From Escherichia virus ECH1, in the sequence record MN164484.2: 46,054 bases of DNA, one strand, 5' to 3'. Shown piece by piece: positions 14,175 to 45,968 of the stretch. The first letter of the stretch is position 1, and each line of letters starts with the position of its first letter. The translations under genes and the position numbers were made by a program. The notes below the pieces were generated by a model. That model was not told the DNA's origin. It searched no databases and saw only the letters and a program-made list of their open reading frames with translations.

Positions 14175-17162
14175 ATGGCAACAAATGAATTAGCCGGAAT
14201 CACACTAGCCGTAGATGTCTCGCAAGTAGACAGGGGCACGCAATCCCTGCAAAAGTTCAGGCAGGCAAACCAGCAAGCCGCTTCCGGAATTAGTGAATTC
14301 GTCAATGCTGAGCAGGTCGCAAAAGACCAAGCCAGAGACACGGCTCGCGCACTGGCTGAACAGCAAGCATCTTTAGCTAAATTGCAAACAGCTATTGACC
14401 CAACTGCGGCAAAGTTCCGTAAGCTGCAAGAGGCTGCTGTAGGTCTGGATAAGGCTTTCGCGGCTGGCGTAGTTCCTGATGAGGAGTTTTTCCGGTTAGG
14501 TGAGGCACTTGAAACTCAGAACGCAAAACTTGCTCGTTCACGTGCTGCGCTAACTGAAGAGGGAAGGGCTGCGGCGCAGGCTGCAAAGGATAAGGCAAAA
14601 GCAAAGGCTGAAGCTGACAGGTTCATTGCATCACTTGAGCGACAGGCTCAAGCGGCAACATTGACGCGTGAGGAGTACTTGAAGTTACAGGCTGCTCAGC
14701 TTGGCGTAAGCTCTCAGGCTGCACCCATCATTGACAGAATCGCCGACGCATCACAGAAGGCAAGCACCCAGTTAATCGCTCAGAGCAAGGCTTTTCAGCG
14801 CTCTGGCTTAAGCGCAGGTCAATACAAGAATGCCATATCTCAACTACCAGCGCAGATTACTGATATTGGCACGTCGCTTGCTGGAGGCATTCCGATTTGG
14901 CTTATTGCAATTCAGCAGGGTGGGCAGATCAAGGATGCATTTGGCGGTATTGGTAACACCTTTAGATTCGCGCTTGCAGCCTTAAACCCATTTAATGTAG
15001 CTGTTGGTGTTTTGGGTGGCGCACTTATTGCTCTTGGTGTTGGTGCAGCTCAGGCTGAAAGTGAATTCAGAGCATTAAACTCCGCAATTGCTTTCTCCAA
15101 CAACTCTACAATCGCATCAATCTCGCAGGTTAGAGAGTTGGTTAGCTCTGTTTCTGATGCAACAGGTGCTACCAGAGGACTTGTGACTAGCATCGCAACA
15201 AGCCTTATTGAGCAAGGGAACCTTACGCTGACGCAGATTGACAAGATTACTAAATCGACCGCAAGATGGGCGCAGTTGACAGGTAAGGATGCGAAGGAGA
15301 TTACTGGTTACTATAACCAGATTGCAAGCGACCCAATCCAGGGTTTAGTTGATTTGGATAAGCGCTTTAACTTCCTCACACAGGGGCAGTTGACGACAAT
15401 CGAAAACCTGAGAAAGACAAAGGGAGAAGTTGAGGCCGTTACTGCTGCGATTGATATTTTCAGCAAGTCTCAGGAAGCCAACCTTAACGACATAGCTGCG
15501 CAGTTAACTCCGCTTGAGCTAGCCTGGAATGATTTCAGAAAGTACATCTCTGATATCTGGGATGCAATTAGTCGTAGAACGGTCGGGGCGCTGAACCTAT
15601 TTGTTGACGTAATCGCCGGAACGATTGAACAGATCAGGGTATTCATTAACCAGGGTGATGTTCTGATTGGTGAATTCGTAATTAGCGCAACTCAGGCATT
15701 GCAGAACATTCCTGGTCTTGATGGCGTTGGTGATGATGTTATCAAGGGGCAGCAGAAGATTATCGATGCCGCCAAGAAGCAAAACCTTGAGCTAGAGAAG
15801 TCTATCAAGGAGCGAGATGCCAGAATCAGAGAGGGAGAGCTTGGTTACGTTACTCGCAGAGAAAATCAGAATACCAATGAGCAGTCAGGTACTGATGAGG
15901 AATTTGCAAAAAGGAAGAAGGCGCTTCAGGATGAGCTTGATGCGATCAAGAAGAACAGGAAAGAAGAAAATAGTAGGGTTAAGGAGCAAAGAGATTTAAC
16001 AATTGGTTATGAATCTGGCGTTCTGGCGCTTCAGGCTCAACTCAAGGTGCTTCAGGAAAACAGGGATATTGGCGCAGTAATAAGCAATGAGCGCAAACAG
16101 TATCTTCAGGAGGAGGCCAAATTCAGGATTCTTGAGCAGAGACAACTTGATGGCTCAATTACCAAAGAGCAAGCAAGACTTCTCATTGAAAAGGATAAAG
16201 TTCTTGAGTTAGCCAGACAGAAGGCTGAGCTAGGTGATCAGATTGTTTTGCAGGAGCGAGCTAATAAGTTAGCTGAAGATAACCGCAAGAAGATTCTTCA
16301 GATTAACAATGAGGCAAGTAACATTGATTTGGGTGCTGGTTTATCATCTCGCGAGCAGCAGAGAGCAAAAGAGATTCAGGCTCTTCAATCCAATCAGGTT
16401 AATGCTGGTGGTTCTGTTGATGATGTTGATTTTCAGCAACTTCTCGAAGCAAGAAAGAAATGCTATGCTCAGGAGGATGCGCATACGTGCAACTGGCTCG
16501 CTGGCGTAACAACAAATCTTGCTACCTGGGCTCAGAGCGCGACGGAATGCACTCAAATTGCTGGAAGTTTCACCACGACAGTCTTTGAAGGTATTACAGA
16601 CCAGATTACAAACCTTGTATCCACTGGTGAGACGAACTTCAGGGATTTTACTGTTAGCATCCTTAAGCAGATTGCTAAGATTGCAACCCAGCTTCTTTTT
16701 GTTAAGGCTATTGAGTCTAGCTTATGTAGCTTCGGTGGTGGTGGCGCTAATGCATTTGGTTCGATTGCATCTGGTTTTGGGTTCGCTACCGGCGGTTACA
16801 CTGGGGATGGTGGGAAGTATCAGCCAGCCGGTACGCTGCATCGTGGAGAGTTTGTATTCACAAAAGAAGCGACAAGCCGAATTGGTGTTAAGAACCTTTA
16901 CGCACTGATGAAAGGTTACGCAAACGGCGGAGCGGTTGGTGGTCCATCTGGTTATTCTGGTGGTGGTTTGGTTTCTGGAGGATCAGATGTTAATGTTAGC
17001 GGTATCACTGTTAACGTTAATGGTGGCGTTGGTAGCGACCCAGAGCAAGCAAAGGCGTTGCAAAACGGCGTTAAGGCCATCGTAGCGGAAGAGATTGCGC
17101 AGTCTTTCCAGCAGGGTGGGCGTGCTTATGCTTACCTTCGCGGATTCAACTACTACCACTAA
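14175..17162 (+). CDS. tail tape measure protein
   Basis: 995 aa, coiled-coil Ala/Gln/Lys-rich, hydrophobic central segments, Gly-rich C-terminus; position after chaperones. Confidence 0.9.
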   Translation: MATNELAGITLAVDVSQVDRGTQSLQKFRQANQQAASGISEFVNAEQVAKDQARDTARALAEQQASLAKLQTAIDPTAAKFRKLQEAAVGLDKAFAAGVVPDEEFFRLGEALETQNAKLARSRAALTEEGRAAAQAAKDKAKAKAEADRFIASLERQAQAATLTREEYLKLQAAQLGVSSQAAPIIDRIADASQKASTQLIAQSKAFQRSGLSAGQYKNAISQLPAQITDIGTSLAGGIPIWLIAIQQGGQIKDAFGGIGNTFRFALAALNPFNVAVGVLGGALIALGVGAAQAESEFRALNSAIAFSNNSTIASISQVRELVSSVSDATGATRGLVTSIATSLIEQGNLTLTQIDKITKSTARWAQLTGKDAKEITGYYNQIASDPIQGLVDLDKRFNFLTQGQLTTIENLRKTKGEVEAVTAAIDIFSKSQEANLNDIAAQLTPLELAWNDFRKYISDIWDAISRRTVGALNLFVDVIAGTIEQIRVFINQGDVLIGEFVISATQALQNIPGLDGVGDDVIKGQQKIIDAAKKQNLELEKSIKERDARIREGELGYVTRRENQNTNEQSGTDEEFAKRKKALQDELDAIKKNRKEENSRVKEQRDLTIGYESGVLALQAQLKVLQENRDIGAVISNERKQYLQEEAKFRILEQRQLDGSITKEQARLLIEKDKVLELARQKAELGDQIVLQERANKLAEDNRKKILQINNEASNIDLGAGLSSREQQRAKEIQALQSNQVNAGGSVDDVDFQQLLEARKKCYAQEDAHTCNWLAGVTTNLATWAQSATECTQIAGSFTTTVFEGITDQITNLVSTGETNFRDFTVSILKQIAKIATQLLFVKAIESSLCSFGGGGANAFGSIASGFGFATGGYTGDGGKYQPAGTLHRGEFVFTKEATSRIGVKNLYALMKGYANGGAVGGPSGYSGGGLVSGGSDVNVSGITVNVNGGVGSDPEQAKALQNGVKAIVAEEIAQSFQQGGRAYAYLRGFNYYH

Positions 17163-17200
17163 ATGGTAAAGCCAAAAGGATTTGGCTTGCTATCATCAAC

Positions 17201-17703
17201 ATGTTAAAAGCATCAGGTGATAAACTGAAGTGGAATGATATCCCTGAGTATAGAGATTTTGTCCTTTATTGGAAGATTTCAACAAGCAACATATCAAGAA
17301 AAAAGATTGGTGATGTTGCGGGTAATCAAATGAATGATGGATACATAATGGTTCAGGCATTAAACAAAAGAATGCTTGCTCATAGGGTTGTTTGGGAAAT
17401 GCATAATGGCAGTATAACTAATGGCATGCATATAGACCATTTAAACCACATAAGGAATGACAACAGGATAGAAAACCTAAGACTGGTGTCAAGAACAGAA
17501 AACAACAGGAATAAATCAGTCAAAAGTAAACAAAACAGGTGTTTCAGGAGTTACATTAAAAGATGGGCTATTTCAGGTTTCGATAGGTGGAGAAAAAAAC
17601 AAGACTTACATAGGAAGGTTCTACACACTGGATCAGGCTACAGCAGCAAGGAAATCCGCAGAATTTCAACTATGTTACCACAATTATCATGGGGGATTTA
17701 ACT
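17201..17703 (+). CDS. HNH-AP2 homing endonuclease, frame-disrupted (HNH in one frame, AP2 domain in the +1 frame from about 17530)
   Basis: HNH motif HRVVWEMHNG...IDHLNH...NRIENLRLVSRTENN; alternate-frame AP2-like NKTGVSGVTLKDGLFQVSIGGEKNKTYIGRFYTLDQATAARKSAE; paralog of 39194-39688. Confidence 0.6.
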
Positions 17704-17704
17704 G

Positions 17705-18052
17705 ATGGCTATTGATACTTTTAACTCGTGCACGCAAATACAGGGTGGATCCAGCTCATTCAGCAACACGAACAACCTGCGACTTGTTAGCTTCGGAAAT
17801 GGTTTTGAGCAAAGAGGAACTGGTGGTTATCGCACCACCCTGAGCGCATACTCACTGACATACACCAACAAGGATTGGAGAGATGTTGACTTTTGTTTAA
17901 ACCACATCATTACCCCGTTCTTCTGGACTACGCCGCAGGGTGACACATCCATGTTCGTAATTCAGCAGGATAGCATTAGCGTTACACCACTCAGCGAGGA
18001 AGTTCAGACTGTAAACATGCAATTCGTGGAAGTCTTTAGCTCAATGCGTTAA
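17705..18052 (+). CDS. minor tail protein (lambda gpM-like)
   Basis: 115 aa, in the M position before the L, K, I, J series. Confidence 0.65.
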   Translation: MAIDTFNSCTQIQGGSSSFSNTNNLRLVSFGNGFEQRGTGGYRTTLSAYSLTYTNKDWRDVDFCLNHIITPFFWTTPQGDTSMFVIQQDSISVTPLSEEVQTVNMQFVEVFSSMR

Positions 18053-18056
18053 ACTA

Positions 18057-18077
18057 AGCCCCTTAGGGGCTTTTTTA
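18057..18077 (+). terminator. rho-independent terminator (AGCCCC-TTA-GGGGCT plus T6) then ATTGGAGA RBS
   Basis: Hairpin plus T-run between M and L. Confidence 0.65.
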
Positions 18078-18089
18078 TTGGAGAATAAT

Positions 18090-18845
18090 ATGCTGAGTCC
18101 TAAGTTTCAGAATCAGTTGCATAGCCTTTTCCCAGGCGAGATTGTGACACTAATTCAGGTTCACGGGACCTCATTCGGAAGTCTCGTTTACAACTTCCAT
18201 AATGAGAACATATCTTACACACCTGAAGAAATCCTGCTGGCCCAACTGAATGGCGATCCACTACCAGAGAAAACCATCACCTTCCGCGGCGAAGAGTATG
18301 GCCCAAGACCATTTGGTATCTCTGGTATCAATATGACTTCTGACGGCAAGGCTAACAAGGTCACGTTAACGGTATCAAACGTGGACCAGCGCATTAGCGC
18401 ATTGATTCGCACATATAACGGACTTGTTAAGGCAAAGGTTACTATCTGGATCACCACGCGCGATAACATCAATGAAGACGGAAGCATTGCTGACGGGGAC
18501 TATCGCAGATTTGTTTACTTCATTGAGCGACCAAAGCAAGTTGATTACAAAACCGCATCATTTGAGCTAAGCAGCCCGATGGATATGGACGGAATTTATA
18601 TTCCTGCACGTCTTGTTCAGTCCGTTTGCTATTGGTCGTCAAGGGGGTGGTATCGTAGCGGTAATGGTTGCGACTATGCTGGCAATCGTTATTTTGACAA
18701 GGATGACAATCCAGTGTCAGACCCTTCACTTGACTTCTGCGCCGGAACGGTAAATAGCTGTAAGATTAGGTTTGGTGAGAATAATCAGATTTCATTTGGT
18801 GGGTGCGCAGCAGCGAGCCTTCAAGCTAAAGCTAATCAGAGTTAA
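18090..18845 (+). CDS. minor tail protein (lambda gpL-like)
   Basis: ATG 18090 with RBS GGAG; Cys-rich C-terminus (CYWSS...CDYAG...C...C) typical of gpL. Confidence 0.7.
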   Translation: MLSPKFQNQLHSLFPGEIVTLIQVHGTSFGSLVYNFHNENISYTPEEILLAQLNGDPLPEKTITFRGEEYGPRPFGISGINMTSDGKANKVTLTVSNVDQRISALIRTYNGLVKAKVTIWITTRDNINEDGSIADGDYRRFVYFIERPKQVDYKTASFELSSPMDMDGIYIPARLVQSVCYWSSRGWYRSGNGCDYAGNRYFDKDDNPVSDPSLDFCAGTVNSCKIRFGENNQISFGGCAAASLQAKANQS

Positions 18846-33088: not shown

Positions 33089-33158
33089 ATGCACCTCCAT
33101 AAACAATAAAGGCACTATACATAATGTAGAGTGCCAATGTTTATCAAATCGTGCTTTT

Positions 33159-33650
33159 TTACTCTGCTTCTCTCTTTTTCTTATTCTCTTCTTTAATCTT
33201 ACGCCATGATCTGGCAGGCGGCTTTGTTGCTAACTCCTCTTTCTTAACAACTCTAAGCATTTCTCGACGGTCACAACGCAATGTTAAAGGCTTACCATTA
33301 CTATCAAATCGAAGGTCTGGACGAATGAAGCTAGCTCGATAACCCTCGCCTGTACGCTTGTACTTACCGTGTAATTTCTGCGCACCTTTAGCTGAAATCA
33401 TTCCGCGTTTACACCATTCAGAAACTACTGCATGTGTCACATTAGCGGCTTTTGCTAGCTTCGATTTACCACCATAAAAATCAAGTACAATCTCAAGTCT
33501 GGCGCGTAAACTAGCTCTCACCTCATCCTTCAAAGTGTAGTAGCCATAAGGTCGACTACGTTCTTTCTTGTCTTCACCGCGCTGAGTTCCGTTATTACCA
33601 TTTAATGTGCGCTTGTCTACTTCACCAGTTGATGCCGCAATTCTCGTCAT
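33159..33650 (-). CDS. helix-turn-helix DNA-binding protein
   Basis: HTH-like segment SKLAKAANVTHAVVSEWCKRGMIS; basic Lys/Arg-rich C-terminus; divergent from the helicase. Confidence 0.5.
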   Translation of the reverse strand: MTRIAASTGEVDKRTLNGNNGTQRGEDKKERSRPYGYYTLKDEVRASLRARLEIVLDFYGGKSKLAKAANVTHAVVSEWCKRGMISAKGAQKLHGKYKRTGEGYRASFIRPDLRFDSNGKPLTLRCDRREMLRVVKKEELATKPPARSWRKIKEENKKKREAE

Positions 33651-36819: not shown

Positions 36820-37016
36820 TTAATAATAGACCGTTCGTTGTTACGTTTAAGCCAAGAAACAACACCCCACGGATGGATGTTGATGAGTACCTTCTGAAAC
36901 GAGGAAATAGCTATTTTGTTCTTGAAATTTCCGCAGACTCAGATAGGTATATAGTAAAAAACGATGCTGGTATTGTTGTTAGTGTTTCAAAATTGGATGT
37001 GGAGATTGTGAGATAA
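36816..37016 (+). CDS. hypothetical protein (66 aa)
   Basis: ATG 36816 overlapping the upstream stop. Confidence 0.35.
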   Translation: MINNRPFVVTFKPRNNTPRMDVDEYLLKRGNSYFVLEISADSDRYIVKNDAGIVVSVSKLDVEIVR

Positions 37017-39193: not shown

Positions 39194-39688
39194 ATGGATT
39201 GGAATGATTTTCTTGAGTATAGAGATGGCAGGCTTTACTGGACTGGCCCGCATTCAACAAAACTCAAGCCAGGTGATGAGGCTGGCAGCAGTCACCATAG
39301 GTGTTATTGGTACATTCGCAGATATGACAAAACAATGTCAAGGCACAGAATCGTATGGGAGATGCACAACGGACCAATACCAGAAGGCATGGAGATAGAT
39401 CATATAAATCACGCCCCTGTTGATGACAGGATTGAAAACCTAAGAATGGTCACAAGAAGGCAAAACAATCAAAACAAGAAATTAGATGGAAGAAATACAA
39501 GCGGACACGTCGGGGTCAGCTGGAACAAGAAGACAAACAAATGGAGAGCAATGATAGGCATAAAGGGAGAGGACGGAAAGAGGAAAACTCTATACGTTTA
39601 CTATGGTGATTCTTTCGATGACGCAGTGTCAGCAAGAAAGAGAGCTGAGGTTGAGTACTCATTTCACGAAAATCACGGAAGAAGCTAG
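39194..39688 (+). CDS. HNH-AP2 homing endonuclease (intact)
   Basis: HNH motif HRIVWEMHNG...IDHINH...NRIENLRMV followed by AP2-like SGHVGVSWNKKTNKWRAMIG...YYGDSFDDAVSARKRAE. Confidence 0.75.
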   Translation: MDWNDFLEYRDGRLYWTGPHSTKLKPGDEAGSSHHRCYWYIRRYDKTMSRHRIVWEMHNGPIPEGMEIDHINHAPVDDRIENLRMVTRRQNNQNKKLDGRNTSGHVGVSWNKKTNKWRAMIGIKGEDGKRKTLYVYYGDSFDDAVSARKRAEVEYSFHENHGRS

Positions 39689-45592: not shown

Positions 45593-45756
45593 TTATCCTG
45601 GCCTTTTAAATTATGACGCTCTCTCAGAACTTCAACCCATTCTTGCGCGTCATTCTCTCTCATGAAGAAACTTAACTTTGGGTACTTGTGAAACCCTTTA
45701 AGTTCAACTATCCAATGGCCACCTTCGTAACTATAACTAACTTTCTTCTCTGTCAT
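45589..45756 (-). CDS. hypothetical protein (55 aa)
   Basis: First ORF after the long leader from the minus-strand motif promoter at 45969-46014. Confidence 0.3.
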   Translation of the reverse strand: MTEKKVSYSYEGGHWIVELKGFHKYPKLSFFMRENDAQEWVEVLRERHNLKGQDK

Positions 45757-45968
45757 TTTGTTACCTTTTAAGTTTTTCTTGTTATCGACATCTCTTCAAC
45801 GTACTCGCTACAACTCGGGGTTTTACTCCCGGCCCGGCATCCTAACAAAAGGACCCGCTCGGCGCTTTGGTGGGTGAGGTAACGCTTCCTCACATTGCGC
45901 GGTATCATTTACCCTTTTTAGTCCCTTTCGGGAGTGACTCAGAGTCTGCTACCGTGTCGATGAAATGA

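Follow-up and report, generated by a model that had tools for sequence, protein, structure and literature searches.

The locus between the tail tape measure gene and the gpM-like minor tail protein gene of Escherichia virus ECH1 (MN164484.2; the window is the whole analysed stretch of 46,054 nt and equals the complete GenBank genome) probably represents a known homing cassette, in which the AP2 domain of an HNH-AP2 endonuclease is cut off by a 2-nt deletion, and this deletion as well as a set of stop codon replacements are probably problems of the sequence record. ECH1 is an unclassified Guelphvirus (Braunvirinae, Drexlerviridae), and its nearest genome in the phage collection is that of vB_EcoS_ACG-M12.

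The deposited ORF (17201-17701, + strand; 166 aa, identical to WEL95464.1) is annotated as 'HNH endonuclease' and comprises the HNH domain, preceded by eight additional N-terminal codons with a private ATG and followed by an out-of-frame tail of 58 aa. Among about 15 billion proteins, WEL95464.1 forms a singleton cluster. The sole Pfam match on the 166 aa is HNH_3 (PF13392), which covers residues 59-103 in frame 0 with 68.6 bits at a cutoff of 24.8. The corresponding beta-beta-alpha-metal nuclease core is located at 17375-17509 (+), as delimited by Pfam and by comparison of the family profile with I-HmuI (1U3E). Its motifs IDH (residues 78-80), IENLR (residues 90-94) and ENNRN (residues 100-104) all lie 5′ of the deletion, and the family-invariant D, H, N, L and R are present in the form of IDH and IENLR. 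The ORF therefore has what defines the HNH_3 / I-HmuI-type His-Me finger nucleases, namely the beta-beta-alpha-metal core with a conserved D-H and Asn.

From 17481 onward, the +1 frame contains no stop before the TGA at 17703-17705, which overlaps the ATG of the gpM-like gene (TGATG). It encodes an AP2-like domain at 17520-17705 (+; SKVNKTGVSGV...YHNYHGGFN), which was identified from the open frame and from alignments to a paralog and to the family profile. When both frames were aligned to the protein of the paralog at 39194-39688, frame 0 matched its residues 1-100 with 47% identity (E 3e-31) and the +1 peptide its residues 101-162 with 31% identity (E 6e-6). Against the C-terminal domain of a family profile built from 51 members, the +1 peptide reached a probability of 98.3% in hhalign (E 1.8e-14), and the out-of-frame tail of the deposited ORF, used as a control, gave no meaningful confidence. 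Since each frame matches the paralog and the profile and the control tail does not, the two-frame arrangement is real and far beyond chance, just as the first-pass annotation had proposed with an HNH domain in one frame and an AP2-like domain in the +1 frame. The AP2 frame lacks an ATG, GTG or TTG start codon and is therefore no ORF in its own right. Nuclease and AP2 domain in one polypeptide, as found in ACG-M12, in six other alleles, in the paralog and in 67 homologues, are not encoded by the ECH1 gene.

The second domain had also been called a clear AP2, which holds for profile and fold but not for the Pfam model. With Pfam AP2 (PF00847), neither the +1 peptide nor the intact protein of ACG-M12 gave a match at E ≤ 0.01, and the paralog scored 21.4 bits, which is under the cutoff of 33.3; the +1 peptide does not attain the gathering score of PF00847. 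Because the Pfam AP2 model is silent on the +1 peptide, profile and fold evidence was used. The conceptually rejoined protein has 67 homologues at about 93% coverage, 12 of which carry both PF00847 and PF13392 in precomputed annotations. While the N-terminal part of the family profile (positions 1-109) matches I-HmuI 1U3E with an E-value of 2.5e-10, positions 88-150 match the AP2 domains of the plant proteins WRI1 (E 4e-7) and TEM1 (E 2e-4). An AlphaFold model of an intact natural allele (P0034; pLDDT 91.3) shows a C-terminal domain of three strands (110-113, 116-123 and 126-133) and a helix (136-149), which superposes on AtERF1 (1GCC) with 1.3 A rmsd over 52 columns and a target TM-score of 0.62. 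Both AP2/ERF homology at the profile level and the fold of a three-stranded sheet with a helix were thus found, and judged by sequence profiles and the structure model the gene is a member of the known HNH-AP2 class.

The paralog itself (39194-39688, +; 164 aa, identical to QFP93020.2) is an intact HNH-AP2 endonuclease gene with both domains in one frame, as had been noted before and could be verified by its ORF and by Pfam. Its protein has the private changes D18G, R33S, G37C and G76V at positions that are nearly invariant in eight other cluster members, and it carries the consensus residues R36 and W110, which are M and L in ACG-M12. The paralog copies of ECH1 and ACG-M12 differ at six nucleotides, each time non-synonymously.

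The left flank of the cassette is the tail tape measure gene (14175-17162, +; ORF with an exact match to WEL95463.1, 995 aa) and the right flank is the gene of the gpM-like minor tail protein (17705-18052, +; ORF, WEL95465.1). In ECH1, ACG-M12, IME253 and L007, a natural contig, the cassette of about 550 nt starts directly after the tape measure stop and ends at the gpM ATG; its carriers among the phages are ACG-M12, IME253, IME542 and JeanPiccard. In EC3a, which has no cassette, only a 30-nt spacer with a GC hairpin separates the tape measure stop from the gpM ATG. A search with the junction gave 266 matching records, and in only 10 of these did the query coverage reach 80%. Most of the related phages (Braunvirinae matches) lack the cassette, and the two flanks are adjacent in many relatives among the matches listed, for example in the 12210I-type isolates (among 43 records with host DSM 12242), OzMSK, FP, MM01, T145P1 and UALMA_PCEc3. 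This is a presence/absence polymorphism at a fixed site between conserved genes, and since a cassette of this size is missing from most relatives, it is classified as a free-standing HNH-AP2 homing endonuclease gene. The comparison of the junction in related phages, which the first-pass annotation had proposed for defining the insertion, thereby supported its view of a free-standing homing endonuclease inserted between tape measure and gpM. By analogy with the family, the intact form of the ECH1 gene would be active in homing.

The cassette begins with a 5′ leader (17163-17200, +), which was delimited by sequence and alignment and may have a regulatory function. It contains a hairpin formed by AAGCCAAA (17169-17176) and TTTGGCTT (17181-17188) and an extended -10-like element at 17188-17196, which reads TGCTATCAT in ECH1 and TGCTATAAT in ACG-M12 and L007, and nearly so in IME253; the -10 hexamer is TATCAT in ECH1 and TATAAT in the intact ACG-M12-type alleles. 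The leader of about 50 nt (17163-17200; 1452-1500 in L002/IME253) is nearly identical between the ACG-M12-type and the IME253-type cassettes, although the encoded proteins are only about 45% identical. In a promoter scan of 17000-18150, no plus-strand match was found upstream of the gene, and the sole plus-strand terminator in the same region lies after gpM. Alignment of the alleles places the native ribosome-binding site AGGTGA at 17215-17220 and the native start at 17225-17227 (together 17215-17227, +), where all intact alleles have ATG and ECH1 has CTG.

At the left boundary, positions 17151-17156 read TAC TAC in ECH1, TAA TAG in ACG-M12, L007 and IME253, and TAA in EC3a, and the ECH1 tape measure protein is extended by three codons (YYH) to the next TAA (17151-17162). 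ECH1 and L007 both join an EC3a-like tape measure 3′ end to an ACG-M12-type cassette. Nuclease genes tend to sit at recombination boundaries (PMC10448857), and the composition of this junction, as it appears in the alignments, would fit such a placement.

Further upstream in the tape measure gene, a mosaic segment at 16440-16800 differs by about 30% from ACG-M12 as well as from EC3a and is closest (83-84%) to JulesPiccard, ZL19 and IME253; it brings in three cysteines and opens long stretches in alternative frames (16510-16908 on the + strand and 16344-16721 on the - strand). In the gpM-like gene, a 3-nt deletion at 17885 drops a Met that is kept by all compared homologues (DV-DF instead of DVMDF), and the ECH1 gpM protein is a singleton at 90% clustering.

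The cause of the split was located by comparison with intact alleles, whose DNA was taken from ACG-M12 and from the one natural contig L007 (Logan, from a public sequencing run). Between 17518 and 17519 (+), where ECH1 reads TCA directly followed by GTC, ACG-M12 and L007 both read TCA CT GTC. The frame therefore changes at a deletion of CT, and the transition is not found in the A-rich stretch around 17528-17539, where it had been placed previously. ACG-M12 gp48 (YP_006987849.1; 17224-17721 in ACG-M12) encodes 165 aa in a single frame, and the same holds for all seven alleles of the 90% cluster (gp48 and six from independent assemblies, represented by 18 contigs), which are 165 aa long and colinear. 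The remoter alleles at the same site, those of IME253 and JeanPiccard, are likewise single-frame. Compared with ACG-M12, the DNA of the ECH1 gene has 34 substituted positions (17194-17699) and two indels, which are the 2-nt deletion and a 4-nt insertion at 17701-17704, and is otherwise identical; ACG-M12-type alleles run 20 nt into gpM. The deletion displaces the linker and the AP2 domain from the frame of the HNH core, which itself is unaffected. A pattern spanning the deletion site, in the form of either allele, gave 0 matches in IMG/VR, the JGI metagenome contigs and the GTDB genomes, so that these collections contributed neither independent DNA of the deleted allele nor the intact allele. 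Taken together, the allele alignments show that the split is due to an indel relative to the intact alleles.

With a deletion in this place, the HNH frame would be expected to close early. Read in the ECH1 register, the ACG-M12 bases give stops in the HNH frame at 17552, 17573, 17633, 17639, 17666, 17672 and 17684. All seven of these would-be stops (17552-17686, +) are replaced in ECH1, the changes relative to ACG-M12 being TAG>TAC, TGA>TCA, TAA>ATG and TAA>TTA, and it is only because of these stereotyped, ECH1-private substitutions that the HNH frame is open to 17701. Nine of the ten substituted positions in 17523-17694 lie inside the seven codons, and with random placement of ten substitutions all seven stops were cleared in 0 of 2,000,000 trials. 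The third frame retains its four stops. Each of the seven replacements alters the amino acid encoded in the AP2 frame (R>T, E>Q, E>Q, R>T, E>Q, N>C and N>Y), and each departs from a residue that is common to all natural alleles. At the other end of the ORF, an in-frame TGA upstream (17213) reads TCA in ECH1 and a new ATG was created at 17201 (TCA>ATG); the replacement of this TGA and of the two tape measure stops (TAA TAG>TAC TAC) is of the same kind.

The same signature was found in a second region, 60-527 (+, in the frame of the ATG at 528), in which twelve ACG-M12 stops are replaced by private substitutions according to the same rule and a new TAA appears at 525-527, just before the ATG at 528. 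The resulting open stretch of 126 codons (147-527) has no ATG, GTG or TTG before 417, and the region is unannotated in ACG-M12. Over the two affected regions, TGA became TCA in 6/6 cases and TAG became TAC in 5/5 cases, whereas TAA was changed to TAT, TAC, TTA or TCA; stop-like triplets elsewhere in the genome show a broad spectrum of changes. Genome-wide, 258 stops were lost and 230 gained relative to ACG-M12, and because loss and gain are balanced in this way, the stop replacement is local and frame-specific. Two further G>C changes, at 18108 and 18162, were considered and rejected, as they lie outside any opened frame and stops persist in that frame. Other private changes have no obvious rationale as a 'repair', namely the native ATG>CTG and the triplet blocks TTT>CCC, GGG>TTT and TGG>AAA. 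The stop replacements and the loss of the native ATG had been missed in the first-pass annotation, and with them a doubtful record becomes a better reading than simple decay.

The global alignment of ECH1 and ACG-M12 contains 1,060 substitutions as well as 5 inserted and 5 deleted bases. Both genomes are 46,054 nt long, as their indels (+1, -2, +4 and -3) cancel out. SCS31 (ON081052) is also 46,054 nt long, has identical CDS coordinates and is 100% identical to ACG-M12 over long stretches. The equal lengths and coordinates of the three genomes suggest reference-guided assemblies. A revision of the region is evident from the protein version QFP93020.2 and from the later WEL954xx accessions of the tape measure, HNH and gpM proteins. 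Other lesions relative to ACG-M12 are located at 33144-33650 (-), 45753-45908 (-), 37013-37015 and 2114-2116; among them are two genes that are five codons short, one start with ATA for ATG and one stop with GAA for TAA. These further small lesions suggest a raised error rate in ECH1. The idea that the whole window is a synthetic or recoded copy of ACG-M12 was rejected, since its divergent patches match natural phages (the EC3a-like tape measure end and the JulesPiccard/IME253-like tape measure patch) and since stop loss and gain are balanced.

In the first-pass annotation the gene had been described as decaying, frameshift-dependent or affected by an indel error, and these readings can now be weighed. 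A link between HNH and AP2 by a programmed +1 ribosomal frameshift or by transcriptional slippage is hardly credible, and this is the part of the proposal that is lost, while decay and indel error both stay in play. A +1 (or -2) shift would have to occur within 17481-17535 to enter the AP2 frame, for which a tRNA-Lys slip on A AAA G (17522-17526) and pausing on a rare codon, AGG at 17537-17539, are the only candidates. A +1 slip on AAA-A would yield NRNKSVK followed by VNKTGVSGV, one residue less than the intact protein, and the AP2 frame terminates in the TGATG overlap with gpM. The site, however, is exactly that of the 2-nt deletion, which is common to no relative: all seven natural alleles and the remoter alleles at the same site are single-frame, and the ECH1 protein is a singleton, so that nothing of the frameshift is conserved. 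No recognised +1 shift motif and neither a stop nor a stall codon of the 0 frame is present at the site, the A run has only 4 nt (AAA AGT, 17522-17527), and an upstream Shine-Dalgarno-like stimulator is absent. The RNA fold of 17515-17620 is less stable than its shuffles (z = +1.52) and offers no stimulatory structure, a -1 shift would lead into a frame closed by stops at 17512 and 17527, and the 0 frame is kept open, which is needless for a recoding site. An A7 run at 17603-17609 comes too late for a rescue, being already within the AP2 domain. The frame change is thus not supported as a programmed frameshift.

For the remaining readings, the stop replacements carry most of the weight. ECH1 is an independent data set and no copy of ACG-M12, as indicated by its EC3a-like flanks and the consensus residues of its paralog, and the deletion could therefore be real. 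Genuine natural decay, i.e., a real deletion and private changes in a pseudogene drifting after fixation or loss of the target, is accordingly a possible reading, but a rather improbable one. Homing endonuclease genes commonly decay via frameshifts (PMC10448857), the data set is independent, and three independent lesions are seen (the -10 change TATAAT>TATCAT, ATG>CTG and the deletion). Neutral decay, however, cannot clear the stops of one frame by a uniform rule and leave the other frame untouched, as the 2,000,000 trials without success indicate; moreover, the remainder of the gene is identical to ACG-M12 at silent sites, and the replacement signature recurs identically in the unrelated region 60-527. 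It is unlikely that the real ECH1 lacks the cassette, like EC3a, and that the stretch was carried over from the ACG-M12 reference during assembly and then altered. The genome length of exactly 46,054 nt with indels summing to zero would agree with such a carry-over, as would the example of SCS31 with its equal length and CDS coordinates and its ACG-M12-identical stretches, and EC3a-like flanks do enclose on both sides a cassette that is ACG-M12-like apart from the odd private changes. Against this, the natural contig L007 shows that an EC3a-like tape measure end and the cassette are also paired in nature, near identity of mobile cassettes is to be expected in diverged backgrounds, and the differences between ECH1 and ACG-M12 are spread over the genome, unlike those of SCS31. 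Very unlikely, finally, is a history in which the private substitutions are real and selection re-opened the frame and kept the disrupted ORF open, be it for a new basic tail on the HNH core that is overprinted on AP2 or for ribosome run-through and translational coupling to gpM within the tail operon. Such selection would account for stop removals that are highly non-random and frame-specific, for a tail rich in K and R and for an ORF end only 3 nt before the gpM ATG. It would have required seven separate stop-to-sense changes without a stepwise benefit, where a single compensating indel is far easier, and the tail is common to no other sequence among the about 15 billion proteins. The uniform rule (G>C, or A>C/T), the presence of the same signature in the start-less stretch 147-527 and the loss of the native start codon also speak against it.

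According to the preferred explanation, that of a known cassette in a faulty record, a segment of about 550 nt with the leader and an HNH-AP2 gene of the I-HmuI/HNH_3 group takes the place of the 30-nt spacer between the tape measure and gpM-like genes. Judging from the family, the AP2 domain of the intact form would provide sequence-specific binding, the HNH domain would nick or cut a cassette-less relative during co-infection, and recombinational repair would then copy the cassette across. The deletion leaves the HNH core with a 58-aa nonsense tail, and site-specific homing should be lost. The pattern of the replacements points to an assembly or consensus indel error followed by a sequence-level 'repair' of ORFs, or by another process outside biology, as their probable source, which would make them non-biological in origin.

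The kind of element is already known. HNH-AP2 homing endonucleases go back to Magnani et al. (2004), as cited in PMC10448857 and PMC5714182; they form group 2 in the classification of His-Me finger nucleases (PMC5714182) and are represented by the 'IPA-HNH' genes in the phage ICP1 (PMC10448857). In these enzymes, the HNH/His-Me nuclease forms the N-terminal and the AP2 domain the C-terminal part, as in the intact alleles of the ECH1 gene, and their genes are free-standing in phages and variably present beside essential genes, which also applies to the ECH1 cassette. The ICP1 IPA-HNH genes are too divergent for Pfam HNH_3, whereas the ECH1 gene is a plain HNH_3 member that is known by its sequence. 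The closest counterparts are ACG-M12 gp48 and the six further alleles of the 90% cluster, which represent the same gene in the same position between tape measure and gpM; these are intact, with an ATG behind AGGTGA and a TATAAT leader, while ECH1 differs by the deletion, the CTG and the replaced stops. I-HmuI (1U3E) has the same nuclease core, the family profile covering its N-terminal 115 residues and the model superposing over 95 columns, but it is intron-encoded and has a helical C-terminal DNA-binding region where the ECH1 family carries the AP2 domain.

The split also has a precedent. Frameshifts are described as a hallmark of homing endonuclease genes, and in ICP1 an HNH gene followed by an AP2 gene (gp115/gp116) was read as a homing endonuclease inactivated by a frameshift and was analysed by the authors as a fused sequence (PMC10448857). 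This frameshift-split HNH/AP2 pair is the same arrangement as in ECH1, except that the AP2 part is annotated as a gene of its own in ICP1, whereas in ECH1 the AP2 frame has no start and the HNH frame is open across it. In prfB (+1), dnaX (-1) and the phage tail chaperone G/GT (-1), segments lie in two frames, as they do within the tail operon of ECH1; programmed frameshifts of this kind, however, show conservation and rely on stimulators and on defined slippery or stall motifs, and the ECH1 site has none of these.

The biological weight of the finding is small, since there is ample documentation of HNH-AP2 genes beside essential phage genes and of frameshifts that inactivate them. The 166-aa 'HNH endonuclease' is no natural protein architecture, and frame-specific stop replacement occurs in at least two places of the record. 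Because stops are replaced in this rule-like manner, the proteins of ECH1 should be used with caution for family alignments, claims of recoding and training data. The main value of the analysis is thus a warning about a public record, rather than new biology or a recoding signal.
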